DNA of 64,000 nt from NCBI GenBank assembly GCA_964482225.1, contig CAYZWT010000002.1, forward strand, positions 86,680 to 150,679. The letters run 5' to 3'. This DNA is from an uncultured Anaerolineales bacterium. Its GTDB lineage: Bacteria; Chloroflexota; Anaerolineae; UBA1429. How positions within the stretch are numbered: the stretch's first letter is position 1; every line of letters begins with the position of its first letter. The position numbers and the translations under genes are program-made. Positions 20,092 to 38,750 of this stretch are shown here, in pieces. The notes under the pieces are model-generated. The model made no database searches. It worked only from the letters and a program-made list of their open reading frames with translations, and had not been told where the DNA came from.

Positions 20092-20700
20092 ATGAAGTGG
20101 TTGGTGCGGCTGGCTATTGTGGCTACTATCGTTGGCTTGGGGCTCGTCCTTATTAGCTGCGGGAGCAATTCGCCGGCCGCGCAACTTCAGGAGGGGCAGC
20201 GGATCACCGCCAGGGAAGCATGGGACGTGATGAAAGGCGAGGTGCTGAAGTGGAAGCCCGGCTCGCTGATCATCACGGCACGGCCACCTTCGCGGCCCGG
20301 CAAAGAAGACCTGGATACCGATGGCCGCTCCTCTGCATGGCGCTTTGTCGTTGCCCCTGAGGGCGACACTCTCCCAGGCATCTACTCTCTCGATACGACC
20401 GTCAAGCCAATCAAGCCGAATCGTACCGAGCAGCGCCGTCCGGTGGCTCCAGCCAATGTGGACCCCGACACATGGACGATTGACAGCCCCGAGGCGATGC
20501 AAATCGCCCTGGATAACGGGCTAGAAGAGTGGATGGCCGATCACCCGGGCTTTCAGCTTCGCACGATGGTTTTTGAACTGAACGCTACAGTGGAGCATGG
20601 TGCACACTGGCGCATCGAGGCTACCCAGGTGCTCGACAAGTTCACGATCCGCATTAGCGCCCTTGATGGCTCGGTGATCGAGACGATCATTACGCCCTAA
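20092..20700 (+). CDS. Hypothetical lipoprotein
   Basis: MKWLVRLAIVATIVGLGLVLISCGS is a signal peptide with an L-I-S-C lipobox. GGAGG RBS. No family recognised. Confidence 0.65.
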   Translation: MKWLVRLAIVATIVGLGLVLISCGSNSPAAQLQEGQRITAREAWDVMKGEVLKWKPGSLIITARPPSRPGKEDLDTDGRSSAWRFVVAPEGDTLPGIYSLDTTVKPIKPNRTEQRRPVAPANVDPDTWTIDSPEAMQIALDNGLEEWMADHPGFQLRTMVFELNATVEHGAHWRIEATQVLDKFTIRISALDGSVIETIITP

Positions 20701-20742: not shown

Positions 20743-23700
20743 CTACACCCACCCGCACAGCGTCTCGACATACTCGGCGGAACCGTCTCGCGCCCAGGTA
20801 TCCAACTGGTCCGGCTCTTTGAGTTGCTGGCCCCGCCTATTGGGCACCGCGACATAGATCCCGCGCCATTCGGGTAGGGCCGTCATATCTCCCCAAAGCT
20901 TTTCGTACTGGGCTACCGGATAGACATCCTCCTGCCCATGCCCCCAGCGCTTTTTGACCTCTTTGAGGGTCACATAGGTTGGCACCCGCCGCGCCATGCG
21001 CCGAACAGCTTGTTCCACGGCATCTGCATCGGCGATGGAGACGCGATCCAAACCGAACAGGGCCAAAAGATCGTCAATCCGCATCCAAAAAGTGTTCGAG
21101 TTGTAATAAGTCAGGCCGAACTCGTCCTCTTCGCGGGGCAGAGCCAGCCCCTCCAGCAGGCGCAAACGCCCGTTCACGCGAGCCAGGCCGCCGCCCCGAT
21201 CCTGCACCCGGCGCGCCACCACCTCGACCGCCATAGGCGCGTCCTGCTCCAAGAGATAGCCCAGCAAGGTCGGATCGAGCCCTGCGCCCAGCGTGTCTAT
21301 ATTGTGCATCATCAGATAGCGCAGCCCCGGCCGCTCCTGCAAAAGCCGCTGCAACACGCCGCTGCGGAGCAGGTTGGGCGCCTCGTACCAATGGCCCACC
21401 GGGTTCATACACTGTAGCGGGACGTTGTCGGTATAGTCAGAGCCCTGGCCCATTCCCTCGGCCCAGGCGATCAGCGCGGCGTGCAAGCTCTCGCGCACCT
21501 TCTGGGCCTGCTCATCCAGGAGTTGCTGTGATAGCTCCTCCCAGGCAAAGCGCAGGTCGCGGGCCATGGGCACCATGCGCAGACCGACGGCGCGCCCCTG
21601 GCTGAGGTACAGCGGCCCGTTGTAGCCATAGTTACCCTGTTCGGCCAGGTGCGCCGCGATGGGTCCGTGGGTCAGATAGCTGGTGGTGATGACGTGAGGC
21701 ACCGGCGCGCCCGCCTGTTGGGCGGTGCGTTGGCTCTTGGCCAAGTGTACCTCTATGAACGAACGATGGCGCCCGCCCAGCCGCGCGAACGGGTTGAGCG
21801 CCTTGACCACGCCGGCCCCCTGGGTCCAACGGCTGCCGACGCCGCCCGCCAGGCTAACCACGGCCACCTCTCCGGCCTGCAATGCCTGGAGCCCTCGCCG
21901 GTATACTGTGCCGTCCCGCTCCTCGGGGAGCCGATGCACATCCTCCGGCGCCACATCGCGAATGTCCGTCGAGACGGGCAAACGGTTCTGGGCCAACCCG
22001 ATCAGGCCGGCGCGCAGCTCGCGGCGGATCTGCTCGTGCTGCTGGCGATCAAAGCCACTCTGCAAGAGCAGGGCCTCCAAGTCGCCCTCGCCCTCGCGGG
22101 CCGCTTCGGCTTGGGGCAGCAGTGCATCGAACAGGGCCTGCACCGTGCCGCCTAGGGCGGGGTTGGTGCGGCAGGCGGCGGCAAAGCGATCCAACTCGGC
22201 GCGCCGGCTGGCCGCGAGTTCATGGCGGCTCTGACGCAGCAGGGGTGGAACCACCAGCGTATAGTATTCCGCCGGCAGCAGAGCCTCGGAGCCCAGAGCG
22301 AGCTGCGCTACACTGCCCTGCTCGTTGATGGCAAAGTCGTACACCACCGGCTCCATGGCAAAGGGCAGAGCGTGCTGTAGGCGGCCCTTTTCCTCGGACA
22401 TGGCCCGCAGCAGGTATTCCTGGGCATGGGCCTTGGCCTCGGGCGACACGATGAACCCCATGCCCCCGCCCGACATGCCGCCGAGCATCCAAAAGCCCCA
22501 GAAGGCAGGGCCAAACTCGCCTTTGGCGCGCGCAATGAGCGCCTCGACATACAGGTTGCTGGCCCAGGGGATGATCGTCTGGATCGGCCCGTAAAAGTTG
22601 CGCGTGGTGGCATCGGCGATCTGGCGCACATTGCCCTTCTGTAGCAGACGCAGCACGTCATCCAGGATAGCGCCCGCTTGGCGGCGCGCCACCCAGGCGG
22701 CGGGCGAGCGCAGCAGGTATCGCTCGGTCACCATCTCTAGGATGGGCCCCACGTTCTGGGCCATGCCGCCGTGCACCAGCACCAGGCTATCCTGCAGGGC
22801 CTGGCGTGTCTGCTGAGAGACCTGCTCGCGATCCAGGATACGGTGCTCTGGCAGCAGCCTTCCCCGGCTGATGCCGTGCTCGGGATCGCCCAAAGCGGCC
22901 TGTACGCCATAGATCAACTTGATGCCCGGCCAGACGCCGCCGGAATCCTGCCAGCCTCCGCCGGAGCCGCCCAGCCACTCGCCCAGGATCGCCCTGGCGG
23001 CCACCTGGCGGCGCTCGTGCTCCTGCAACGTGCCACTCAGGCTGCCGATCTGGCGTGTGGCCCGCATCAAGGCGGCGATCATGGCGGCCAGCAGCGTGGT
23101 CGAGACGGCCAAGCGCGAGCCCTTGGGGATGCCGCGCACATGGCTCACCACCTCCAACCCACGCCCCGGGCCCACCAGGCGCTCCAGCAGGTCCGATAGG
23201 GGCTGCTGCGCACCCTCGATGCCGGGCGGCACGATCCCTGCCGCGATCAGCGCCGCCTTGAGCAAGCCGAGATAGTCGCGTGCCAGGTCGAATACCTCGG
23301 CAATGCTGTGGATCTCGGTCTGGGCCCCCAGGTCCACGCTGACCAGGCGGATGAGCGGCTCATCGATGACGCGCACGTGGGCGGCGACCGGCGGCCTGGG
23401 CGCGGCATCGCGGCCGCGCACGGCCAGGTCAATGGAGACGTTGATCACCCGCGCGCCCTCGGGATAGTCCATGCCCAGGAAAAAGATGTCGCTCCAGCCG
23501 CTGTGGGTCAGATCCATGCGCACGGGCGTGCTCTCGGTGAGCAGAGGATAGAGCCCCGTCGCGGGGTCGCGGCGGGCCAGCTCGGGCGCAATGCGCAAGG
23601 GATGGTCGGCGGGGTGGCCCATGCGGAACATCCAGCGGTTGCCGGAAAAAGAGAGCACGCTGTGGCGCACCTGGTCGGCCAGGGTCTGGAAGCCAAGCTG

Positions 23701-24069
23701 GTAATAAGCCAGGGCCAGGGCGCTGGCCAGCGCCTCGGAGGGACCGTCGGCGGCCTGGGCGCTCAGCAGCGCGTCAATGGCCTCGTCAAAGCGGCGCTCG
23801 AGCAGGTGGGTGTAGCCGGTGTAGGGGATGTGGCCTTCAGGGCGCAGTTCACGGCGCAGTGGCAGGTGAAAGCGATAGAGGGCATACAAGAAGGTGGTGG
23901 CGCGCACCCGCTCGAACAGGTTGGGGGCGTTGCGGCGAAAGGCGTCCAGCGCGGCGCACTCGGCCAGCAGCGCGGCCAGGTCGCGCCCGGCGCAGGCCTG
24001 CTCCAGCGAGAGGTTGCGCACATCGGGGTCAGCGGAGGTGATGATCTGCTGCAGTGGCATGGTGTGCAT
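20743..24069 (-). CDS. Bifunctional fusion: N-terminal GHMP-family sugar kinase-like domain plus C-terminal UDPGP-type (eukaryote-like) sugar-1-phosphate uridylyltransferase domain
   Basis: N-terminal half carries GHMP-like motifs (GIPKGSRLAVSTTLLAA, ~GLGSSAA; FWMLGGMSGGGMGFIV, ~GAGGGG). C-terminal half carries UDPGP family blocks (VVSLAGGVGSRW, ~LNGGLGT; MMHNIDTLGA; YYNSNTFW, ~FNTNNLW). 4-nt gap to the upstream GalU-like gene. Confidence 0.6.
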   Translation of the reverse strand: MHTMPLQQIITSADPDVRNLSLEQACAGRDLAALLAECAALDAFRRNAPNLFERVRATTFLYALYRFHLPLRRELRPEGHIPYTGYTHLLERRFDEAIDALLSAQAADGPSEALASALALAYYQLGFQTLADQVRHSVLSFSGNRWMFRMGHPADHPLRIAPELARRDPATGLYPLLTESTPVRMDLTHSGWSDIFFLGMDYPEGARVINVSIDLAVRGRDAAPRPPVAAHVRVIDEPLIRLVSVDLGAQTEIHSIAEVFDLARDYLGLLKAALIAAGIVPPGIEGAQQPLSDLLERLVGPGRGLEVVSHVRGIPKGSRLAVSTTLLAAMIAALMRATRQIGSLSGTLQEHERRQVAARAILGEWLGGSGGGWQDSGGVWPGIKLIYGVQAALGDPEHGISRGRLLPEHRILDREQVSQQTRQALQDSLVLVHGGMAQNVGPILEMVTERYLLRSPAAWVARRQAGAILDDVLRLLQKGNVRQIADATTRNFYGPIQTIIPWASNLYVEALIARAKGEFGPAFWGFWMLGGMSGGGMGFIVSPEAKAHAQEYLLRAMSEEKGRLQHALPFAMEPVVYDFAINEQGSVAQLALGSEALLPAEYYTLVVPPLLRQSRHELAASRRAELDRFAAACRTNPALGGTVQALFDALLPQAEAAREGEGDLEALLLQSGFDRQQHEQIRRELRAGLIGLAQNRLPVSTDIRDVAPEDVHRLPEERDGTVYRRGLQALQAGEVAVVSLAGGVGSRWTQGAGVVKALNPFARLGGRHRSFIEVHLAKSQRTAQQAGAPVPHVITTSYLTHGPIAAHLAEQGNYGYNGPLYLSQGRAVGLRMVPMARDLRFAWEELSQQLLDEQAQKVRESLHAALIAWAEGMGQGSDYTDNVPLQCMNPVGHWYEAPNLLRSGVLQRLLQERPGLRYLMMHNIDTLGAGLDPTLLGYLLEQDAPMAVEVVARRVQDRGGGLARVNGRLRLLEGLALPREEDEFGLTYYNSNTFWMRIDDLLALFGLDRVSIADADAVEQAVRRMARRVPTYVTLKEVKKRWGHGQEDVYPVAQYEKLWGDMTALPEWRGIYVAVPNRRGQQLKEPDQLDTWARDGSAEYVETLCGWV

Positions 24070-24073
24070 GGCG

Positions 24074-24922
24074 TCAGCCTCGATCCAGCTCGCGCTGGGC
24101 CAGCAGTTCCAGCAGGTGGCTCAGCACCGTTTCGCGGTCCTGGCCGGCCAGCGCCAGCGCTACCTGCGCCATCAGGATGCCATAGCGCACGCCCACGTCG
24201 TAGCGGCGCCCCCGGCTCTCCAGCGCCAGATAGCGTTCGCGATGAGCCAGCTCGTCCAGGGCATCAGAGAGCGTTACGGCCTCGCGCTGCGCCTCTAGCC
24301 GCGCGCCCAGGATCTCGAGCACCATAGGCGTGAGCACGTGCATCCCGAAAAAGCAGAGATAGTGCCCCGCTCTCAAGCCAGAGATCACCAGCCATTGCTC
24401 GGCCTCGGTGGGCGTGGGTTTCTCCATCACCCGCTCGACGGTATAGAGGCGGCTGCTGCCCGAGACGCGCTTGCCGCCGATGCAGCCAAAGTAGGGCAGC
24501 AGGCTCTCGCGCGAGGGGGTGACGGCCGAGATGGCGCAGGCGTTGCGCTCGGCGGCCTGCACCAGGTCTTGGGCGCACCCGGTCTCGGTATGGGAGATCG
24601 GCAGGTGGTCGCTGACGAGATGCAGAAAGGGTTCTTGCCCCACAAACTCGCGGGCGCAATAGACCGCGTGCCCATAGCCCAACGGCTCGGCCTGCGGGAC
24701 AAAGGTGAGGCGGTTGGCATAGGCGCCCACGGCCTCGGCATAGGCGCGCTCGTCGCCCGGGCAGATCACGACGCAGACCTGCTCGATGCCGGCGCGCAAA
24801 GCCTCTTCGACCAGGATGGTCAGCACGGGCTTTTCCTGGCCATCGGAATCTATCAGGGTTTGCAGCGGCAAGGTACGCTGTCTTCGCCCTGCTGCCGTGA
24901 TGACAGCCTTGGTAATCTGCAT
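24074..24922 (-). CDS. Sugar-1-phosphate nucleotidyltransferase (GalU/UDP-glucose pyrophosphorylase-like)
   Basis: [19 protein letters not shown] matches the GalU-type KAVIPAAGLGTR N-terminus. AAGGAG RBS. Start moved to the internal Met. Confidence 0.7.
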
Positions 24923-25042: not shown

Positions 25043-26641
25043 TTACCCCACCAGCAACGCCGCGCGGGCGAGCCATGCCAGCGCGTGATCCAGTTCTTCC
25101 TGGATCCTCCGGCGCAGTGTCTCCATGGAGGGCGCTTCGTCGCCCTCGCCCCGGAGGCGTAGCGCGCCTTTGGCGATCAGGTCATCCAGCAGGGCCAACA
25201 GGTCCTCACGGGTGTGCCGGCCATCCAGGTGCGGCAGGATGTAGCGGCCCAGGGGATCCAGGTGCACCCGCTCGTGGCGCAGGTTCGCCACCCGGTCACT
25301 CTCGCGGGCCTGGTAGCGCGCCAGGGCGCTGGCCACGGGGCGCTCGCTGGCCGAGGTGACAAAGGTGGGCGTGTAGCCGTGGAACTCGACCAGGGACAGG
25401 CTGTAGGTGAACGCCTTGAGCAGGTTGGCGGCCAGGTGCGTGACCTCGTCATCAGGAGGGGCGCCCTGGCCGAGGCGTTGGGCGGCGGCCTGTGCCAGCG
25501 TGGCAAAGGGCAGCGCCTGGGGAGCGCGTGCGACGAGGCAATCCAGCGCCGCAATGGTCAGGGGATGATCGGTCTGGAAGATGGCCCCATCGGGGCTGCG
25601 GTAGCGCGCTGCCCCCGGATGCGTACCCTCAGGCTCATCGGCCAGGCGGACGGCGCGGGTCGAGACCGCCAGCTCGCGCACCCGCGCCGTCCGCAGCGTG
25701 CGCTCCACAGCCAGGTGGGCATGGCAGAGCAGCGTGCGCCGGAACGTGCGGTTGCGGATGAAATCCATGTACTGCTCGGTGTCTACGATGGTCTCGCAGA
25801 TGCCTTGCAGCGCGCCCACGACCTCGTCGGACAGATTGTTGGGCATGGAGAGCGGGAAATCGGCTTCCACCAGGAACTGGAGCCCGTGGCGCGCCGCGTG
25901 CTCGGCGAACTGCCAAAAGTAAACCGGGTCGTTGTGCTCTTCTAGCTCATCGTGCAGCAGCGCCGCATCTATGCGGGGGCGCGCATCTTCAAGCTGCAGC
26001 TCTAGCAGGTCGTGGTAGCCCTCAATGAACGTGCCATAGGCTCGGTTGCGCTCATCGGCGACGGCGTCACGCAAAAAGGCGATCAGGGCGCGGGCTTGCT
26101 CGGCGCGTTGGTGGGGGTCATGCTCGTTGCGCGTATGGTAGAGCATCATCTCGCGCAGCCCCAGGAGCGTGTGCCAACCCGGATAGGCGTTGTAGCTGAC
26201 ATAGGCCACGCCCTGGGGGGCCAGGTTGGCGCGGCAGGTCGCCAACAGGCTATCGCGTACCTCGGGGGGCACCCACGAGTAGAGGCCGTGGGCGATGATA
26301 TAGTCAAACTCGCCCAGATCGGCGCTGATGTCGCGGATATCCATGGCCAGAAAGGCAATGTTTCCCAGCCCTAGCGCACGCACGGTCTCGGTCGCCTCGG
26401 CGATCTGGCGGGCCGAAAGGTCGATCCCGATAAAGGTGCTCTCCGGCAGGGCGTAGGCCATGGGCAGCAAGTTGCCGCCCGAGGCGCAACCCAGCTCCAA
26501 CACGCGACAGCGCGTAACCGGAGCGGGCGCCAGGCCCAGCAACCGCGCGCAGGCCGCCAGTCGTCCTGGATGGGTCTGGGTATAGCAGAGCCCGGGGTAG
26601 GGCAGCTCGTCATAACTGATGGGAGGGGCGCTGATAGGCAT
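25043..26641 (-). CDS. Class I SAM-dependent methyltransferase with a C-terminal 'methyltransferase regulatory domain'
   Basis: VLELGCASGGNL...IGIDLS...AHGLYSW Rossmann motifs, followed by a domain of about 250 aa typical of PF10119-type predicted methyltransferases. Start at MPISAPP. Confidence 0.65.
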   Translation of the reverse strand: MPISAPPISYDELPYPGLCYTQTHPGRLAACARLLGLAPAPVTRCRVLELGCASGGNLLPMAYALPESTFIGIDLSARQIAEATETVRALGLGNIAFLAMDIRDISADLGEFDYIIAHGLYSWVPPEVRDSLLATCRANLAPQGVAYVSYNAYPGWHTLLGLREMMLYHTRNEHDPHQRAEQARALIAFLRDAVADERNRAYGTFIEGYHDLLELQLEDARPRIDAALLHDELEEHNDPVYFWQFAEHAARHGLQFLVEADFPLSMPNNLSDEVVGALQGICETIVDTEQYMDFIRNRTFRRTLLCHAHLAVERTLRTARVRELAVSTRAVRLADEPEGTHPGAARYRSPDGAIFQTDHPLTIAALDCLVARAPQALPFATLAQAAAQRLGQGAPPDDEVTHLAANLLKAFTYSLSLVEFHGYTPTFVTSASERPVASALARYQARESDRVANLRHERVHLDPLGRYILPHLDGRHTREDLLALLDDLIAKGALRLRGEGDEAPSMETLRRRIQEELDHALAWLARAALLVG

Positions 26642-30380: not shown

Positions 30381-31556
30381 ATGCGTATCGTAGCAGCGGA
30401 CATCTATGACGTGGACCTGCACCCTTGGAAGCCGCCCGTGATCCTGCGATTGACCACCGACGAAGGCATCTATGGCTTGGGCGAGTTCGCCCTCTGCTAT
30501 GGCACAGGCCGGCGGGCCGCTCTGGGCATGTTGCACGACATGGTGGAGCGCTTTGTGATCGGCGCCGATCCGCTGCGCGTCGAGGAGATGTGGAAGACCC
30601 TGTTCTTTCGCACCTTTTGGGGGCAGGGGGGCGGGCCGGTGGTCTATGGCGGCATCAGCACCATAGACCAGGCGCTGTGGGATATCAAGGGCAAGGCCTA
30701 TGGCGCGCCCATCTATGAGCTGCTGGGCGGCAGGGTACACGATAGCCTGCGGGTCTACTGCAACGGCTGGTTGGGCGATGAGTATGCCCCGGCGAACAAT
30801 GCCCCCATCGAGACGCCCGAAGACTATGCCGAGCGCGTTGCAGAGGTGGCTGCTATGGGTTATGACGCCCTCAAGTTCGACCCGTTCGCCGCGCCGCGCG
30901 GCAGCGGCTGGAAGCCCCGCCAACGCCTGCTGGAGCCCGAGCGGGCCGATCTGGCCTATGAGCGGGTCAAGGCCGTGCGCGAGGCCGTGGGGCCCAACGT
31001 GGATGTGCTGGTGGAAGTACACGGCTACCTGGGGGTCTCCGATGCCATCGCCTGGGGGCGCCGCATCGTCGAGCTGAACCCGTTCTTTTACGAAGAGCCG
31101 GTGGATGCTATGAATGTCGAGTGCATGGCCAGGGTGGCGCGCGAGGTCCCCATCCCTCTTGCGGCGGGCGAGCGCCTGTATACCCGCTACGGTTTCCGCG
31201 AGTATATCGAGCGGCAGGCCATAGACATCCTGCAGCCCGACGTGGGGCTGGCCGGGGGGATCACCGAGCTGAAAAAGATCGCCGCCTATGCCGAGACCTA
31301 TGATCTGTACGTGCAGCCGCACAATTGCCACGGCCCCGTGGCCACCGCCGCCGCCGTTCAAGTGGATGCCTGCATCAGCAACTTTATCATCCAGGAGATG
31401 ATCCCTTGCCGGTCGGCCATGACGTACGAGCTGGTGAACGAGCCGCTGGAGCCGCAGATTCGCAACGGCTACTTGCCTGTGCCGACCGCGCCCGGCCTGG
31501 GGGTGACCCTTAACGAGGCCTATGTGGCCGATTGCCCCGTGGTGCACCTTAGCTGA
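30381..31556 (+). CDS. Enolase-superfamily dehydratase (mandelate racemase/muconate-lactonizing enzyme family; mannonate/galactonate dehydratase-like)
   Basis: MR/MLE N-terminal capping domain plus metal-ligand blocks (KFDPF...EEP...AAGER...D). GGAGGAGGAG RBS. Confidence 0.75.
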   Translation: MRIVAADIYDVDLHPWKPPVILRLTTDEGIYGLGEFALCYGTGRRAALGMLHDMVERFVIGADPLRVEEMWKTLFFRTFWGQGGGPVVYGGISTIDQALWDIKGKAYGAPIYELLGGRVHDSLRVYCNGWLGDEYAPANNAPIETPEDYAERVAEVAAMGYDALKFDPFAAPRGSGWKPRQRLLEPERADLAYERVKAVREAVGPNVDVLVEVHGYLGVSDAIAWGRRIVELNPFFYEEPVDAMNVECMARVAREVPIPLAAGERLYTRYGFREYIERQAIDILQPDVGLAGGITELKKIAAYAETYDLYVQPHNCHGPVATAAAVQVDACISNFIIQEMIPCRSAMTYELVNEPLEPQIRNGYLPVPTAPGLGVTLNEAYVADCPVVHLS

Positions 31557-31682
31557 GGCGGCCTTTGGAGCGCTGTTGCCCAGATCGGAAGCCCAGGAGG
31601 CTATGTGCGTTTATGCAACGTGTAGGAAAGTAAGCTAGAGAGCCAGGTACGTCAGAACAGGAAACGAACCCAGTACGCTGGC

Positions 31683-31711
31683 TTGACGCAGCGCCGGGTA
31701 AGTGGTATCAT
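31683..31711 (+). promoter_or_regulatory. Sigma70-like promoter: TTGACG, 17-nt spacer, TATCAT, at the head of the glycan cluster
   Basis: Read from the sequence, about 60 nt upstream of the dehydrogenase ATG (31774). Confidence 0.5.
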
Positions 31712-31773
31712 GCGCGGGTTGTCTTTTGGGGGAGCGGTTGCGCGGGCTGGCAAGGCAAGGACGGCGAGACGAG

Positions 31774-33117
31774 ATGACATATACAGATAGCGGCGGGGCG
31801 GGCCATTGGCAGGCGCTGCGCGAACGCATTGATGCGCGCACGGCGCGGATCGCCGTGATGGGCCTCGGCTACGTGGGACTGCCGTTGGCGTTGGCCCTGG
31901 CCGAGGCGGGTTTTGCCGTCACCGGCGTTGACCCTGATGTGGCCAAGTGCGACGCCGTCAACCGGGGTGAGAGCTATGTCGGCGACGTGCCGGGGGCGTG
32001 CGTGGCAGCCCAGGTGGCAGCCGGGCGCCTGCTGGCCGATCCGACGCCTGCGCCCTTGGCCCAGGCCGACGTGGTCATCATCTGCGTCCCGACGCCCCTC
32101 AGCAAGGGCAAAGACCCCGACATTTCGTACATCGTCAAGGCGGCGGACGGCCTCAGCGGCGCCATGCACGCGGGCATGCTGGTCGTGCTAGAGAGCACGA
32201 CCTACCCAGGCACCACAGAAGAGATCCTGCTGCCCCGGGTCGGGCAGAACGGCTTTGCCGTGGGGCAGGATGTCTTTGTGGCCTTTTCGCCCGAGCGCGT
32301 GGATCCGGGCAACAAGACGTACACGATCCGCAACACACCCAAAGTGGTGGGCGGCGTCACGCCGGCCTGCCTCGATCTGGCCCTGGCCCTCTATGCCGCC
32401 ATCGTTGAGCGTACGGTGCCCGTCTCCAGCCCAGCGACCGCCGAGATGGTCAAGATCCTGGAGAACACCTATCGCGCCATCAACATCGGGCTGGTCAACG
32501 AGATGGCACAGATCTGCCACCGCATTGGGCTGGATATCTGGGAGGTGATCGCCGCTGCCAGCACCAAGCCCTTTGGCTATGCGCCTTTCTATCCGGGGCC
32601 GGGCCTGGGCGGCCACTGCATCCCCATTGACCCGCTGTACCTCACCTGGAAGATGCGCGCCCTGAGCGTGCAGACGCGCTTTATCGAGCTGGCCGACGTT
32701 GTCAACGCCGAGATGCCGCGCTATGTGGTACAGCGGGTGCAGGATGCTCTGAACGATGACGCCAAGCCGCTGCGCGGTAGCCGCATCCTGGTGCTGGGCG
32801 TGACGTACAAGCCCGACGTGGCCGATCTGCGCGAGAGCCCTGCGCTCACAGTGATGGACCTGCTGCTGGAGCGGGGCGCACTGGTGAGCTACCACGATCC
32901 CTACATAGAGCGCCTCGCGCTGCCGGAAGCAGGCGTCCTGGCGGGCGTGGCGCTGACCGACGAGGCCCTCGCGGCGGCGGATTGTGTCCTGATCCATACG
33001 GCCCACGCGGGCTATGATTGGGCGCGCGTGGCAGCGCACGCCCGAACGATCTTTGACACGCGCAACGCCATAGAAACCGCCACGTATGATGGAAGCGCGC
33101 GACTCTACCGGCTCTGA
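31774..33117 (+). CDS. Nucleotide-sugar dehydrogenase (UDP-glucose / UDP-N-acetylmannosamine dehydrogenase family)
   Basis: [29 protein letters not shown] is the NAD-binding Rossmann N-terminus. Catalytic-domain GGHCIP-like block present. C-terminal UDP-binding domain. Start moved to MTYTD. Confidence 0.8.
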
Positions 33118-33859
33118 GGCCGCCCGTATCACGGGGGGCGTAGGGCTCTATCTGCGACGCCAGGCCGATGGCCTGACACGCTACATGCTGGAGCAGACGG
33201 CGCAGACCCTGTTCGGCTGGGCGCCCACTCTGGTGGGCATCGCGCTGCGGGCCGTGGCCTATCGCGCCATTATGCGCATGGAAGGCAGCGTTGCCATTGA
33301 ACGGGGGGTGCGCCTGCGCTTTGCCAGCCACATCCGGCTGGGGCGGGGCGTGTATCTCGACGAAGGCGTCTACATCCACGCCTGCCCGCAAGGGGTGCGC
33401 ATCGGCGCGGGCAGTCTGGTGATGCACGGCAGCATACTGCACACGTACAACTTTCGCGACCTGCCCCATGCGTTCATCCATATCGGGCGCGATAGCCTGA
33501 TTGGCGAGTACAATGTGATCCGGGGACAGGGCGGTGTGACCATCGGCGACCGGGTGTACACCTCGCCCCTGGTGCAGATCATGGCCGTCAATCACGTGTT
33601 TGACGATCCGGCGCGCCCGTTTGTGGCCCAGGGCCTCACCGCCGAGGGGATCGTGATCGAGGATGACGTCTGGATCGGCTCCGGCGCGGTGATCACCGAT
33701 GGCGTACGCATCGGGCAAGGGGCAGTGGTTGCGGCAGGGGCCGTTGTCACCCAGGACGTGCCGCCTCATACGCTGGTGGGCGGCGTGCCCGCCCGCGCGC
33801 TGCGCCAGATCGACGGCAGCGACCATGTGCGGGGCAAGCAGGTGTATCTGAATCAGTAG
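33086..33859 (+). CDS. Left-handed beta-helix (hexapeptide repeat) sugar O-/N-acetyltransferase
   Basis: Hexapeptide repeats (IGDRVYTS..., [31 protein letters not shown]). Overlaps the upstream dehydrogenase by 32 nt. Confidence 0.7.
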
Positions 33860-33889
33860 TGTGCGCAGGCCGCGCGCCGAGGAGCGAAC

Positions 33890-35140
33890 ATGGCCACGAT
33901 GGAACGCGTTATACAGCGAGGCGCCGATACGGCGGCCCGGCACCTGCTCTCGGTGGTGATCCCCGCCCTGGACGAAGAGGACGGCATCGCCGCCATCATC
34001 GAGCGGGTGCTGGCTGTGGCCCCGGCCTTGGCCGAAATGGGCGTGGGGCTGGAGCTTGTGGTAGTGGACGATGGATCGAGCGATGGCACGTGCGACGTGG
34101 TGGCCCGCTATGCTGCCGCCCGTCTGGTGCGCCACGGCTGCAATCGTGGCTACGGGGCCGCCCTCAAGACCGGCTTTGCCGCCGCCCAGGGCGATTGGCT
34201 GGCCTTTTTGGATGCCGATGGCACCTATCCCCCCGAGCACTTTCCGACCCTATGCCGTGCGTTGGAGGAGGGCGACGGGGCAGATCTCGTGGTAGGCTCG
34301 CGGCGCTCGGGGGCGGCTAGCGAGATGCCGTTCATGCGTCGGGTGGGCAATCTGCTTTGGTCCAGCATGGTCACCCTGCTGGGGAACCGCCGCGTGGTGG
34401 ACCCCGCCAGCGGGATGCGCGTCTTTCGTCGAGAGGCCCTGGAGCGGCTCTATCCCCTGCCCGATGGCCTCAACTTTACGCCGGTGATGAGCACACGGGC
34501 CATCCACGAGGGCGTGCGCCTGAGTGAGATCCCGATCCCCTACCAGGAGCGCCAGGGGCGCTCCAAGCTTAGGGTGGTACAGGATGGCATGCGCTTTTTG
34601 CGCACCATCGTCTGGACCGTCATGGCCTACAATCCTGCGCGCTTGTTTGGAGGGCTGGGCTTTGGCCTGTTCATCGTGGGCGCCCTGATCGGCCTGATCC
34701 TGGTGGCGTTGCGTCTGGCGGGCGTCACGACCTTGGGGCCCCTGGGTGTGGCGGGCGCATACCTGGCTGCTCTTGGCCTCGTGGTTGGCTTTGATCTCTT
34801 TGCCCTGGGGGCCACGTTCAACTATCTGGTGGCCCTTTTTCACACGCGCCCGGTGCAACGTGGGCTCTTTGGCAAGCCGATCTTTGACCCGCCCCTCGAT
34901 CGCCAGTTCTGGTGGATGGGGCTGCTGGCGGGGGTGGGCGGCCTGGGGTTGGGGCTCATGAGCCTGATCCTGGGGGCCAACGGCTGGCCCATCGAGCGCC
35001 TCTGGTTCTATCTGTTGGCGGGCACGATGTTGCTGATCCTGGGCATGCACCTGCTGATCTTTTGGGTCATCATGCGCGTGCTGGAGGAGCTGAGCCAGCG
35101 CGGAGAGTTGACGCGCGCCGATCTCGAGTGTGGTCCATGA
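33890..35140 (+). CDS. Family 2 glycosyltransferase with C-terminal multi-TM anchor (polyprenyl-phosphate sugar synthase-like, DPM1/GtrB/ArnC type)
   Basis: LSVVIPALDEE...VVDDGSSDGT...DADG are GT2 DxD-type motifs. Four C-terminal hydrophobic helices. GAGGAG RBS. Confidence 0.8.
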   Translation: MATMERVIQRGADTAARHLLSVVIPALDEEDGIAAIIERVLAVAPALAEMGVGLELVVVDDGSSDGTCDVVARYAAARLVRHGCNRGYGAALKTGFAAAQGDWLAFLDADGTYPPEHFPTLCRALEEGDGADLVVGSRRSGAASEMPFMRRVGNLLWSSMVTLLGNRRVVDPASGMRVFRREALERLYPLPDGLNFTPVMSTRAIHEGVRLSEIPIPYQERQGRSKLRVVQDGMRFLRTIVWTVMAYNPARLFGGLGFGLFIVGALIGLILVALRLAGVTTLGPLGVAGAYLAALGLVVGFDLFALGATFNYLVALFHTRPVQRGLFGKPIFDPPLDRQFWWMGLLAGVGGLGLGLMSLILGANGWPIERLWFYLLAGTMLLILGMHLLIFWVIMRVLEELSQRGELTRADLECGP

Positions 35141-36798
35141 GCGAGGCGGATGTGGGAGATAACCGGGGCGCGCGCACGCTCCAGCGGGTATGGGCCGAGG
35201 CGCCGCCGCGCGCCGATACGGGCGATCTGCTGGGCGCCCCACGCGGCCCCGAGGCGGTGGACGTCCTTTTCGCCAACCCGCCCGCCCCTGATGGCGGCAT
35301 CTGGATCCGTAGCCAGCACCGGGTGGGGCGGCGTTCGCGCGAGGGCATGATCTGGCCCCAGGCCGATTTGGCCCAGATGGCGGCCCTGTTCCCCGAGCGG
35401 CGCGTCGCCGTGGTGGATGCCATCGCCGAGCGCATGTCCTGGCGCGCTTTTGAGGCGCTGCTGGACCGGCTGCAGCCCCGCTACTATGTCACCCAGGCGA
35501 CGGCGCCCACACTCCAGAACGATATGTACGGGGCGTTCCTGGCCCGGGCGCGCGGGGCCGCCACCATCGCTTTTGGCACCCATGTGACCCCTATGCCCGT
35601 CGGCACCCTGGAAACCTATCCCGCGCTGGATTATGTGCTGTGCGGCGAGCCCGAGCTGACCCTGCGCGAACTGGTGGATGCGTTGGATGCCGAGAGCGAG
35701 CCGTGGGGCGCCTTGGAGCGGGCCGATCCGGCGCTGGCTGAGGCTCTGGCGCGGCTCTTTCGCCAGGCGGATCCCGCGTGGGAGCCGGCGGGGAGCGCTG
35801 CGCCCAACGAGCGGCTGGCGCGCATCACGGGGCTGGCCTGGCGGCGCGCGGGCGAGGTCACGCTCAACGCGCCCCGCGCGCTCATCTGCGACCTGGATGC
35901 CCTGCCGTTGCCCCGCCACGACCTGTTGCCGCTGCGCTGCTATCGCGCGCCCCTGGTCAAGGGCCCCTATGCCTTTGTGGTCACCAGCCGGGGGTGCCCG
36001 GGGGCGTGTCGCTTTTGCATCAAACACGTCTCGTATGGGCGCTCGGTGCGTTTCCGCTCGCCGGAGCACATCCTGGACGAGATCGAGCAGTTGGTGGGCC
36101 TGGGCGCGCGCAGCATCCACATGTACGCCGACCTGTTCACCATCAACCGCGAGCATGTCATGGGCATTTGCCAGGGGTTGCTGGAGCGCAACCTGCGGGT
36201 GCGCTGGACCTGCAACAGCCGGGTGGATTTCGTGGATCGTGAGATGCTGGCGCTGATGGCGCGGAGCGGTTGCTGGATGATCTCATGGGGCATTGAATCG
36301 GGCGATGAGGACATGCTGCGGCGTATGCAAAAGGGCATCCGTCTGGAGAGCATCCACCGGGCGCTGGCCTGGGCGCGCCAGGCAGGCATTCGCAACTGGG
36401 GCTATTTCATCATCGGCCTGCCCGGCGAGACCGTCGCCAGCATCCGGCGCACCATCGCGCTGGCCAAGGCGCTGCCGCTGGACCTGGCGTTGTTTCATAT
36501 CGCCGCGCCGCACCCTGGCACGCCCTTTTTCTTTGAGGTGGTGGAGAACGGCTGGTTCCGCCCCGGCACCCGCTGGGAAGAGGTGGATATGGACCGCTCC
36601 ACCGTGCTGGATTACCCGGATCTGCCCGCGGAGGAACTGGAGCGCTGGTCGCAGCGCGCCTTGCGTGCGTGGGCGTTGCGCCCCGGCCCCATGTGGACCT
36701 ACGCCAAGATGCTGCTGGGCAGCCCCAGCCTGTGGCGCGCTGCCCTGGAGATCGGCTGGGAGAGCTTGGGCTGGCTGCGAGGGACCGGGGCTCGATGA
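35137..36798 (+). CDS. B12-binding (class B) radical SAM enzyme
   Basis: N-terminal cobalamin-binding Rossmann-like domain, then CPGACRFC (CxxxCxxC) and a radical SAM core. The ATG overlaps the GT2 TGA (ATGA) and its own TGA overlaps the next ATG. Confidence 0.75.
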   Translation: MSEADVGDNRGARTLQRVWAEAPPRADTGDLLGAPRGPEAVDVLFANPPAPDGGIWIRSQHRVGRRSREGMIWPQADLAQMAALFPERRVAVVDAIAERMSWRAFEALLDRLQPRYYVTQATAPTLQNDMYGAFLARARGAATIAFGTHVTPMPVGTLETYPALDYVLCGEPELTLRELVDALDAESEPWGALERADPALAEALARLFRQADPAWEPAGSAAPNERLARITGLAWRRAGEVTLNAPRALICDLDALPLPRHDLLPLRCYRAPLVKGPYAFVVTSRGCPGACRFCIKHVSYGRSVRFRSPEHILDEIEQLVGLGARSIHMYADLFTINREHVMGICQGLLERNLRVRWTCNSRVDFVDREMLALMARSGCWMISWGIESGDEDMLRRMQKGIRLESIHRALAWARQAGIRNWGYFIIGLPGETVASIRRTIALAKALPLDLALFHIAAPHPGTPFFFEVVENGWFRPGTRWEEVDMDRSTVLDYPDLPAEELERWSQRALRAWALRPGPMWTYAKMLLGSPSLWRAALEIGWESLGWLRGTGAR

Positions 36799-38750
36799 CC
36801 AAGCGCGCGGCTTACGGCGGCGTTCGCACGCTATTCCCCTATCTCGAACTGGGCCTTGCGCTGGCTGCTGCGGCGCTGTGGTATAGCACCGGCGGCGCCG
36901 TGTGGTTCCGTGAGACGGCCATTGGCCTGTGGCCTGTCGCGCTGGTGGCAGCCCTCTGGCCGTTGCACTGGGGCGCGCGCAAGCGTCGCCATGTGTCCGG
37001 GCGGGCCGGCTACACCCTGTGGTTGGCCCTGTTTCTGCTGTCGGCCGGGGCCTCTGTGTGGGCCGCCTATGACCGGCAGATCGCCCTGGCCAAGTTCGGC
37101 CTGATCCTCGGGGCAGTGGGGCTGGCGGCGGCGCTGGCCCATCAGCCCACACGGCGCCATCTCTATGTCGCTCTGGGGGTGCTGGCGGCGGTGGCGGCCT
37201 GCCTGGGCGCGTTCTTTATCTTGACCAATGACTGGGCCGCACAGCCCGTCAAAGTGCCGCTGCTTTCGCGCCTGGGGGTCGCGCTCTCATCTGCGCTCCC
37301 CGACCTGCGCGGCCATCGCATCACGCCCAATGTCGTGGGCGGCATGTTGGCTGCATTGCTGCCTCTTGCCGTGGCCCTGGTGAGCCTCCGTCCTCGCGCC
37401 TGGTTGGGGAGCGCCCTGGGGCGTTGGGCCAGGGCGATGCGGGCCATGTGGGCCAGCGCTGCGGCTGTGGCAACGCTGGCTTTCTTGCTGAGCGTGTCGC
37501 GGGGCGCCTGGTTGGGCCTGGGCGCGGGCGCGCTGCTCTGGGGGTTGTGGCGTTGGGTCGCAGGCGAGCCGGTCAGAGAGCCGGAGGGCTGGCGCCGCCA
37601 GGTGATCGCCGGCGGTTTGCTCTGCGCTGCACTGGCCCTGGCCGCCCTGCTGGCGGGCTATGCGCTGCTTACCCTGGGGTTACCGGGCGCAGATGCGCTG
37701 GCCGGTAGGCTGGCCCTCTGGCGCGATGGCTTGCTCCTCGCGCAAGACTATGCCTATACGGGTGTGGGGATGGGCCTCTTTTCGACCCCTTTTTCAGTTT
37801 ATACCCTCTTGATCCACGTAGGGTACATCGTCTATAGCCACAATATGTGGATCGACATTCTGGCGGAGCAGGGCGTATTCGGTGTGGCAGCCCTGGCGCT
37901 GCTCATGGGGACTGCTGTGGCAGGCTTTGTCCGCTGGCGACGGGTCGCCAGCAAGGGGCTGGGCCGTGTGATGGAGGCCTGCCTGGTCTCCATCGTCGCC
38001 ATGACGGTTCATGGCATGTTTGACAATGTGCTGTATGGCAGCCGGGGCGTGCTGATCCTGTTCACGCCCTATGGTATTATGATGGCGGCGACAGCGCTGG
38101 CTGCGCGTGAGGGCGCGCACAAGGGGGAGCAAATGCGGCGGCAAGGGGCGGCCCTGGCCTGGCTAGGTCCGCCGGCCGTGGTCATCGTGGCCCTGTTGGC
38201 GATCAGCCTGGGGCGGCCGGCGGCTGCTTGGCACGCCAATCTGGGGGCCGTGGCCCAAACCCAGGCCGAGCTGCAGGTCTATGACCCGCTGCACTTTGAT
38301 AACCCAGACCTGGATCAGGTGCGCAAGCAAGTGGACCTGGCCGATGCGCAGACCCGGCTGGAACGGGCCGCGCGCTGGCCTGGCCACCCAACGGCCCGGC
38401 GTCGCCTGGCAGCCATCGCCTTGGCCCAGGGGGACTATGAGCGGGCGTTGGCCTTGATGCAGGTCGCCTGGGATGCGGGGCGCCGCGATGCGCCCACGCG
38501 CCTGCTCTATGGCGACGCTCTGGTCGCCAATGGCTATGTGGCCGAGGCGGCGCGGGTGATTGCCGGGCTTGCATGGGCGGCGCCCCGGTTGGAAGGACAG
38601 GCATGGTCGCGGTACTGGGTGCATGAGGACTGGGAGCGGGCGGCCTATGCCTATGAGGCCGTGGCTCTGTTGCAGCCCGGGCAGGGCGGCGCCGAGCAAC
38701 GCGCCGCCGATGCCAGACGCCGCGCGGGGCTGCCCCCGCTGGAGCCATAA
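36795..38750 (+). CDS. Wzy_C / O-antigen ligase-family polytopic membrane protein with C-terminal TPR-like repeat domain
   Basis: About 10 TM helices. Wzy_C signature (YSHNMWIDILAEQGVFG). C-terminal region of about 200 aa of helical TPR-like repeats (LAAIALAQGDYERALALMQVAWDAG...). Confidence 0.7.
   Translation: MTKRAAYGGVRTLFPYLELGLALAAAALWYSTGGAVWFRETAIGLWPVALVAALWPLHWGARKRRHVSGRAGYTLWLALFLLSAGASVWAAYDRQIALAKFGLILGAVGLAAALAHQPTRRHLYVALGVLAAVAACLGAFFILTNDWAAQPVKVPLLSRLGVALSSALPDLRGHRITPNVVGGMLAALLPLAVALVSLRPRAWLGSALGRWARAMRAMWASAAAVATLAFLLSVSRGAWLGLGAGALLWGLWRWVAGEPVREPEGWRRQVIAGGLLCAALALAALLAGYALLTLGLPGADALAGRLALWRDGLLLAQDYAYTGVGMGLFSTPFSVYTLLIHVGYIVYSHNMWIDILAEQGVFGVAALALLMGTAVAGFVRWRRVASKGLGRVMEACLVSIVAMTVHGMFDNVLYGSRGVLILFTPYGIMMAATALAAREGAHKGEQMRRQGAALAWLGPPAVVIVALLAISLGRPAAAWHANLGAVAQTQAELQVYDPLHFDNPDLDQVRKQVDLADAQTRLERAARWPGHPTARRRLAAIALAQGDYERALALMQVAWDAGRRDAPTRLLYGDALVANGYVAEAARVIAGLAWAAPRLEGQAWSRYWVHEDWERAAYAYEAVALLQPGQGGAEQRAADARRRAGLPPLEP

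Follow-up and report, generated by a model that had tools for sequence, protein, structure and literature searches.

A fucokinase-like kinase fused to a UDPGP-family nucleotidyltransferase, and its GalU-like partner gene, in an Anaerolineales bacterium and many other bacteria

The fusion gene and its GalU-like partner

The window analysed here is a stretch of 64,000 nucleotides from an uncultured Anaerolineales bacterium of the Chloroflexota (assembly GCA_964482225.1, contig CAYZWT010000002.1, positions 86,680 to 150,679 of the forward strand). Its subject is a pair of minus-strand genes: an open reading frame (ORF) that joins a fucokinase-like kinase to a UDPGP-family nucleotidyltransferase, and a GalU-like gene immediately upstream. 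The fusion is currently annotated as a plain UTP--glucose-1-phosphate uridylyltransferase. A first-pass annotation made from the letters had read it instead as a single chain of 1108 residues with a GHMP-type kinase in front of a eukaryote-type UDPGP pyrophosphorylase; the ORF was confirmed with its ATG start, and the five motifs quoted for it (SLAGGVGSRW, HNIDTLGA, YYNSNTFW, GSRLAVSTTLLAA and GGMSGGGMGF) are all found in the translation. The two genes form a module that is present in hundreds of species from many phyla. The features are as follows, with domains assigned by hidden Markov models (HMMs), profile searches of the PDB and structural comparison of a predicted model.

20743..24069, minus strand: fusion ORF, 1108 residues from an ATG start; helical domain, fucokinase-like GHMP domain, helical linker and UDPGP domain
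23554..24069, minus strand: residues 1-172, N-terminal all-helical domain (helices only by DSSP on the model)
22276..23553, minus strand: residues 173-598, GHMP-fold L-fucokinase-like kinase domain (HMM, PDB profile, Foldseek), with PVR184xD186, GW192SD194I, phosphate loop P315-KGSRLAVS-T324, E364, GGGWQ374D375 and motif III GGMSGGGMGF at residues 530-539
21910..22275, minus strand: residues 599-720, helical linker or N-terminal extension of the UDPGP domain, with the conserved stretch GFDRxQHEQIR...GLAQNRLP
20746..21909, minus strand: residues 721-1108, UDPGP-family nucleotidyltransferase domain (Pfam, PDB alignments to UDP-glucose pyrophosphorylases [UGPases], Foldseek), with LAGGVGSR747W, K756, PVGH893, HN923ID925TLG, DR958GGG, YY989N990 and E1056-K1057-LWGD1061
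24067..24081, minus strand: gene junction; GAGG at 24081-24078 within the end of the partner gene, TGA at 24076-24074, spacer CGCC, fusion ATG at 24069-24067
24074..24922, minus strand: GalU-like sugar-1-phosphate nucleotidyltransferase (the partner), 282 residues from an ATG at 24922; the mechanical ORF reaches 24979 and the JGI call is 282 residues
24968..24996, minus strand: candidate sigma-70-like promoter just upstream of the partner, TTGCCT-17-TACAAT, matching the consensus at 9 of 12 positions

Whether two genes had been joined artificially was a question raised with the first description, and the answer is that the fusion is real and conserved in relatives. The identical 1108-residue protein is encoded on 24 independent contigs from JGI, ENA and Logan assemblies, and homologues of about 1107 residues with 99-100% query coverage make up more than 8000 clusters, a figure that is a lower bound. 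The best 80 loci are all full length, and some lie on megabase contigs; they come from the Chloroflexota, Verrucomicrobiota, Acidobacteriota, Planctomycetota, Armatimonadota, Bacteroidota (Ignavibacteria, Rhodothermales), Myxococcota and others. A frameshift or misassembly was rejected on these grounds, and the probability that we leave to such an artefact is negligible. A pattern scan of one genome per species gave at least 532 confirmed stretches, which is not a gene count because up to two patterns per gene are possible, and which corresponds to at least a few hundred species.

Among the 80 loci closest to the query, mean identity of the fusion is 61-68% between phyla and 69-72% within them. 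In 62 of 76 cases the closest sequence comes from the same phylum, which suggests mostly vertical inheritance with some transfer. Conservation was also scored per domain, as the mean fraction of 77 aligned sequences that are identical to the window residue. The kinase and UDPGP halves are similarly conserved (0.69 and 0.66), the N-terminal helical domain (0.57) and the linker (0.53) follow, and the best conserved segment is an insert within the UDPGP domain at residues 829-889 (0.73). The gene pair is also found on a 242-kb plasmid of the cultured Bacteroidota strain Hymenobacter volaticus (NZ_CP095065.1; locus L097, 7026-11318), where the partner bears the annotation "sugar phosphate nucleotidyltransferase"; the gene table has no entry for the fusion, which tblastn recovered in four pieces and which may be a pseudogene there. 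One locus bears the name Litorilinea aerophila.

The GalU-like gene is an almost obligate partner of the fusion. In 77 of 83 loci, from at least nine phyla, a homologue is the next gene upstream in the same orientation; of the six loci without one, five extend less than about 1 kb upstream of the fusion. Identity of the partner across phyla is 44-77%. De novo clustering of ORFs in the 83 loci gave no other conserved neighbour, and none that names the sugar. At the junction, the partner stop and the fusion ATG are separated by a 4-nt spacer, with GAGG 8 nt upstream of the ATG, a layout that fits translational coupling of the two genes. The promoter match upstream of the partner is a weak candidate for the promoter of a two-gene operon.

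The partner matches the Pfam NTP_transferase family and has YngB and GalU as its best PDB matches (E=6e-22), yet it falls well short of the GalU model TIGR01099 (103.7 bits against a cut-off of 326.8). Its nucleotide loop has the family consensus AAGxxQRxLPLQT where GalU has AAGLGTRFLPATK (GxGTRxLPATK), so that both the catalytic-loop signature of GalU and the loop lysine are missing; EPLGxGHAV, VEKP and RYDxG (RYDVGV in the window) are retained.

The kinase and UDPGP halves

The N-terminal GHMP-type kinase of the first-pass annotation is borne out, and the comparisons tie the kinase half specifically to the L-fucokinase part of FKP, the bifunctional fucokinase/GDP-fucose pyrophosphorylase of Bacteroides fragilis. 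Residues 180-549 align to the fucokinase part of the NCBIfam model for FKP, PRK13412 (model positions 613-944 of 974, E=3.3e-23), at 81.4 bits against an equivalog cut-off of 721, which places the protein outside the FKP equivalog. FKP is the sole match of the N-terminal half in a single-sequence search of the PDB (5.7e-12), and a profile of nine diverse homologues recovers the whole FKP kinase domain at 1.2e-23, with heptose kinases at 2e-5 to 3e-3. A two-lobed GHMP fold was found by Foldseek, in which the model matches the fucokinase part of FKP (9iip) with a template modelling (TM) score of 0.77 and the heptokinase WcbL (4usk) with 0.76. Motif III, GGMSGGGMGF, aligns with the GAGGGG loop of FKP, and its G534 and G536 are invariant in the 77 sequences.

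Functional residues of FKP can be followed into the fusion through the HMMER alignment. In FKP, D762 is the general base, R592 stabilises the transition state, S719 and S720 form the metal site and E751 is essential, while fucose is contacted by W599, D601, T602 and Q761 (PMC11982464). The equivalents in the fusion are D375, R184, S323, T324 and E364 for the first group and W192, D194, I195 and Q374 for the second. Eight of the nine fucose, metal and transition-state residues are thus kept, the catalytic aspartate and arginine among them, and the sole change is T602 to I195. All of these positions, I195 included, are invariant in the 77 sequences from at least nine phyla. The helical domain that precedes the kinase also precedes the GHMP domain in a homologue from the Omnitrophota in which the domains are permuted (P0241, described below).

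The C-terminal half had been read as a eukaryote-type UDPGP enzyme, and this too was upheld. Pfam UDPGP (PF01704) is matched with E=1.4e-17 and 64 bits against a gathering cut-off of 22, and Foldseek aligns the model with UAP1 and UGPase structures at TM 0.54-0.58. The G-rich loop with its Arg and Lys, the GH and NxD motifs and the C-terminal Lys, whose functional roles are general knowledge of the family, are all in place, and G743, R747, K756, H893, N923, D925, G959, Y989, E1056, K1057 and D1061 are invariant in the 77 sequences. With the active-site residues of both halves invariant, both look catalytically competent.

Residues of the sugar pocket point to a UGPase-like enzyme. H893 aligns with His192 of Arabidopsis UGPase, which is reported to block N-acetylhexosamine-1-phosphates, and Y989 aligns with Phe292; an aromatic residue near C4 is a feature of UGPase, unlike UDP-sugar pyrophosphorylase (USP) and UDP-N-acetylhexosamine pyrophosphorylase (UAP) (PMC5609113). 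The small residue and glycine that mark USP at C4 (AtUSP Ile319/Gly320) are not found, Y989 being at the aligned position, and the Asn that UAP/AGX enzymes carry at the position of UGPase His192 is likewise replaced by H893. Since H893 is the equivalent of His192, N-acetylhexosamine substrates appear disfavoured.

An AlphaFold2 model built from 41 homologues reached a mean predicted local distance difference test (pLDDT) score of 76.9 and a predicted TM score (pTM) of 0.77, the latter of which suggests a fixed arrangement of the four domains. The helical insert at residues 829-889 has low model confidence.

Predicted route to a nucleotide sugar

The reading that we favour, with roughly even chances of being right, is a module of two genes and three active sites that takes a free sugar to a nucleotide sugar: the kinase would feed the UGPase-like uridylyltransferase to which it is fused, and the partner would be a second pyrophosphorylase or a regulator. 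In the first step, the fucokinase-like domain would transfer phosphate from ATP to a free sugar at its anomeric hydroxyl, as its conserved residues imply, with D375 as the general base, R184 and a Mg2+ held by S323/T324 stabilising the transition state, and the sugar ring held by W192, D194 and Q374. The sugar-1-phosphate would then pass within the polypeptide to the UDPGP domain and react with UTP to give UDP-sugar and pyrophosphate, the uridylyl transfer proceeding through the G-rich loop with R747 together with K756, H893, D925 and K1057. We infer, then, that the fusion makes a UDP-sugar directly from the free sugar. Least certain is the role of the GalU-like protein, which would be co-translated and probably bound, and which could act as a second sugar-1-phosphate nucleotidyltransferase whose nucleotide loop is altered, or as a regulatory subunit like GalF or GMPPA. 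The sugar is probably a neutral hexose or 6-deoxyhexose and not an N-acetylhexosamine. Kinase-pyrophosphorylase fusions have precedents in FKP (PMC11982464) and in zebrafish GKUP (PMC3938481).

Several observations weigh against this proposal. Pfam GHMP models, GHMP_kinases_N among them, gave no match on the N-terminal half, so that the domain search suggested with the first description succeeded for UDPGP but for GHMP through the FKP model only. The Pfam model misses the kinase because its phosphate loop is non-canonical: PKGSRLAVST, invariant in the 77 sequences, stands where FKP has PAGSGLGTSS, and relative to the GHMP consensus PxGSGLGSSA two glycines have become R319 and A321, while the Ser/Thr equivalents of S719/S720 are retained. 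Distant members have a loop of the form GSGLAxSS and a weak match to GHMP_kinases_N (GSGLAISS in P0241; weak matches in P0148 and P0149). The two halves, moreover, may not share a substrate, the kinase pocket being L-fucokinase-like and the UDPGP pocket UGPase-like. A simple route from L-fucose to UDP-L-fucose is doubtful because the pocket of the kinase resembles that of L-fucokinase but the UDPGP-family USPase of Arabidopsis does not use beta-L-Fuc-1-P (PMC5609113). The module model also leaves the need for a second nucleotidyltransferase unexplained, and among relatives of the fusion there are a split variant without the UDPGP half and giant homologues with additional domains, both described below.

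The altered loops could also mean that one of the three units is a pseudoenzyme, a non-catalytic sensor or regulator that tunes a single UDP-glucose-type pyrophosphorylase in the manner of GalF, GMPPA or the large subunits of ADP-glucose pyrophosphorylase. Besides the kinase loop, the partner loop (GxxQR) is non-canonical and has lost its lysine, and the conserved insert of low model confidence at residues 829-889 is a possible interface. A mere binding domain is nevertheless unlikely because the FKP catalytic equivalents (D375, E364 and the metal-binding serines) are invariant, as are the catalytic residues of the UDPGP domain, and we hold this explanation to be quite improbable.

The split variant (L092; ENA contig k141_206709, 2664-5923) bears directly on the division of labour. 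On a single low-GC contig of 5.9 kb, it has a partner gene (38% identity), a 566-residue protein with the helical and kinase regions (40% identity) and a PHP phosphoesterase gene that overlaps by 4 nt, and no UDPGP half. This arrangement suggests that the partner may be the kinase's own pyrophosphorylase, in which case the system would be an FKP-like one spread over two genes, and the fused UDPGP domain would run a second, independent reaction, such as UDP-glucose synthesis or the reverse, supplying UTP or glucose-1-phosphate. The gene order of the operon, with an NTP_transferase gene followed by a helical region and a fucokinase-like domain, is collinear with FKP (PMC11982464), and so is that of L092; the partner is conserved as strongly as the fusion (the 44-77% identity given above) and keeps the sugar-phosphate motifs VEKP and YDxG. 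Against this stand the size of the evidence from L092, which is one 5.9-kb contig, the main family, in which UDPGP is always fused and its active site invariant, the distant Omnitrophota, which retain the kinase-UDPGP fusion with no GalU-like neighbour, and the partner itself, which is without the GalU catalytic-loop signature and its lysine. We consider a division of FKP over two genes unlikely but worth keeping in view; with partner and kinase but no UDPGP in L092, either pyrophosphorylase may serve the kinase. Among the candidates looked up, L092 was the only informative split variant. The others were rejected: P0139 is a contig-end fragment, P0175 a lone 520-residue kinase-like gene in an unrelated context, and P0212 a 642-residue UDPGP-like protein with no annotated neighbours.

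Distant members of the family, at 30-40% identity, are found in the Omnitrophota and in the oxymonad Blattamonas nauphoetae. The Omnitrophota members keep the fusion of kinase and UDPGP even where it is permuted, and have no GalU-like neighbour. In Candidatus Kaelpia imicola (P0241; locus L089, 8001-11741), the protein is circularly permuted, with UDPGP first and the helical and GHMP domains last; it has G in place of W192, and among its neighbours are large proteins that carry NUDIX and FBPase_2 domains. Other Omnitrophota members adjoin large proteins with FBPase, NUDIX or UDP-glucose-dehydrogenase domains. Two giant homologues, P0142 (2318 residues) and P0157 (2939 residues), combine the kinase-UDPGP module with ROK and inositol-monophosphatase domains; P0157 (locus L088, 10001-18820) has an Omnitrophota-like gene context and lies beside a 7976-residue protein with HAD and Glycoamylase domains. 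A GalU-like domain was looked for within the giant homologues, as a triple fusion, and none was found. The Blattamonas protein (P0150, KAK2962578.1; 1292 residues) has a degenerate UDPGP loop, LASRVCSGW, and A replaces W192; it may have been acquired laterally and then have lost or changed its function.

The phosphatase and ROK domains of the giant homologues and the neighbours in the Omnitrophota hint at phosphorylated intermediates, as in nucleotide-heptose synthesis. In a bisphosphate route of this kind, the GHMP domain would phosphorylate C1 of a sugar phosphate, a phosphatase encoded elsewhere would take off the distal phosphate, and a nucleotidyltransferase would form the NDP-sugar last, so that a phosphomutase is bypassed. 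The fold match to WcbL is nearly equal to that of FKP (TM 0.76 against 0.77), the module is joined in the giant homologues to a ROK sugar kinase and a domain of the inositol-monophosphatase family, the PHP phosphoesterase lies directly downstream in L092, and the phosphate loop has an invariant extra arginine, R319. Sequence similarity, however, favours FKP over the heptokinases (1e-23 against 2e-5), W192, whose FKP counterpart stacks on the sugar, does not vary in the main family, and there is no phosphatase among the conserved neighbours in the 83 loci. On balance, we judge a route through a bisphosphate to be improbable.

A further possibility, which we treat as speculative and rather unlikely, is that fusion and partner assemble obligately into a heteromeric machine that has three active sites and an activity beyond those of described enzymes. 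It might perform a kinase-primed uridylyl exchange via UTP and pyrophosphate, that is, a Leloir-type step without GalT, with one pyrophosphorylase running in reverse on UDP-glucose and feeding the other. Alternatively, it might make a new nucleotide sugar from an L-fucose-like sugar, needed by the Chloroflexota, Verrucomicrobiota, Acidobacteriota, Planctomycetota and others. Either variant would account for the 61-68% identity between phyla.

Beyond the two genes, the wider neighbourhood was compared with the tight block described in the first-pass annotation. The 4-nt gap to the GalU-like gene stood, but the methyltransferase, which had been counted in the same block, adjoins the operon in only 3 of 83 loci and was rejected as part of the module; a galactokinase that had been pointed out nearby lies about 9.4 kb away and is incidental. 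PADLOC gave no match for fusion or partner, and an anti-phage defence system was rejected for this reason. An Rfam scan of the window gave no match, and hence no riboswitch or RNA clue. Other features of the window are listed below.

25043-26641, minus strand: PKMT-type methyltransferase, the next gene upstream of the operon; MethyTransf_Reg and a PKMT C-terminal winged helix accompany its methyltransferase domain, which is generic and the only part that matches PADLOC mad2 (E=1e-21)
20092-20700, plus strand: 202-residue ORF, convergent with the fusion gene, without a Pfam match
30381-38750, plus strand: glycan/exopolysaccharide biosynthesis cluster, with a strongly negative AT skew (-0.23 to -0.27) at 34-38 kb
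38790-43013, plus strand: 1407-residue BNR-repeat/LysM protein
43083-46145, minus strand: 1020-residue Peptidase_C25 (gingipain-like) protein, adjoining the BNR-repeat/LysM gene

Unannotated ORFs of similar size to the convergent one (196 and 269 residues) occupy the same place in the relatives L005 and L006, but clustering grouped only two loci. The biosynthesis cluster includes genes for an MR_MLE enolase-superfamily protein, a UDP-glucose/GDP-mannose dehydrogenase (31702-33117), a hexapeptide acetyltransferase, a GT2 glycosyltransferase (33890-35140), a radical SAM protein (34912-36798) and a Wzy_C/TPR protein (36669-38750). After the Peptidase_C25 gene, G+C falls to 0.58 at 46-48 kb.

Should the favoured reading of a kinase that feeds its fused uridylyltransferase be true, the fusion would be a natural one-polypeptide route from free sugar to UDP-sugar. 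FKP is a workhorse for the synthesis of GDP-fucose analogues, and a UDP-sugar equivalent would be directly useful in chemoenzymatic glycan synthesis. The module is among the more conserved uncharacterised two-gene modules in abundant, little-studied environmental phyla, and its strong sequence constraint, obligate second nucleotidyltransferase and fixed non-canonical phosphate loops call for an explanation. Knowing the substrate could bring to light a salvage or envelope-glycan pathway shared by the phyla that carry the module.

Comparison with known systems

The closest known system is FKP of Bacteroides fragilis (PDB: 5YYS, 9IIP, 9IIT; PMC11982464), in which an anomeric GHMP sugar kinase and a sugar-1-phosphate nucleotidyltransferase are likewise part of one chain. 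The two kinase domains are homologues (profile E=1.2e-23, TM 0.77) and have their catalytic and fucose-contact residues in common save T602. The domain order, in contrast, is reversed: the pyrophosphorylase comes first in FKP and last in the fusion, so that the N-terminal GFPP domain characteristic of FKP is not found. The FKP transferase is a GFPP-type NTP-transferase with a beta-helix that uses GTP, whereas that of the fusion belongs to the UDPGP family and probably uses UTP; the fusion also has an extra N-terminal helical domain and an obligate GalU-like partner gene. The distinction from FKP in domain order and pyrophosphorylase family, which the first-pass annotation had drawn, therefore holds.

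In known systems, to our knowledge, GHMP and UDPGP chemistry are combined only through the successive action of separate enzymes. In the plant routes (GlcAK, AraK or GalAK with USP) and the human one (GALK2 with AGX1/UAP1), a GHMP kinase is followed by a UDPGP-family pyrophosphorylase, as in the fusion (general knowledge; PMC6329318, PMC5609113), but these are separate proteins and their kinases come from other GHMP branches. In the sugar pocket, USP has a small residue and a glycine near C4 where the fusion has Y989, and UAP has Asn where the fusion has H893. Zebrafish GKUP resembles the fusion in that a GHMP sugar-1-kinase and a UTP-dependent pyrophosphorylase are joined, for salvage that yields a UDP-sugar (PMC3938481). 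It differs in its N-terminal, short, bacterial-type NTP_transferase, in its glucuronokinase-type kinase and in its occurrence in animals, and its UDP-GlcA pyrophosphorylase is putative (PMC3938481).

Nucleotide-heptose pathways (HddA/WcbL kinase, GmhB phosphatase and HddC transferase; the bifunctional HldE) share the combination of kinase and nucleotidyltransferase, the fold of WcbL (TM 0.76) and, for some distant homologues of the fusion, phosphatase domains attached or nearby. Sequence similarity to them is weak (E=2e-5 to 3e-3), however, and the main family has no conserved phosphatase; HldE differs further in pairing a ribokinase-type kinase with a cytidylyltransferase-type transferase. 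The partner has the fold of GalU and GalF and has EPLGxGHAV, VEKP and RYDxG in common with them, but GxGTRxLPATK has become GxxQRxLPLQT, the score is 104 against a TIGR01099 cut-off of 327, and the gene is always coupled to the fusion.

Judged by these residues, the fusion is not a typical USP or UAP, and by score and signature the partner is not GalU. NCBIfam has no model specific to the fusion, and the architecture was not found in a full-text literature search, outside the scope of which most subscription journals lie, or in a term search within the 2025 FKP phylogeny paper. Allowing that a prior description is possible, what appears new here is the architecture: a fucokinase-like kinase first, a UDPGP domain last and an obligate GalU-like partner.

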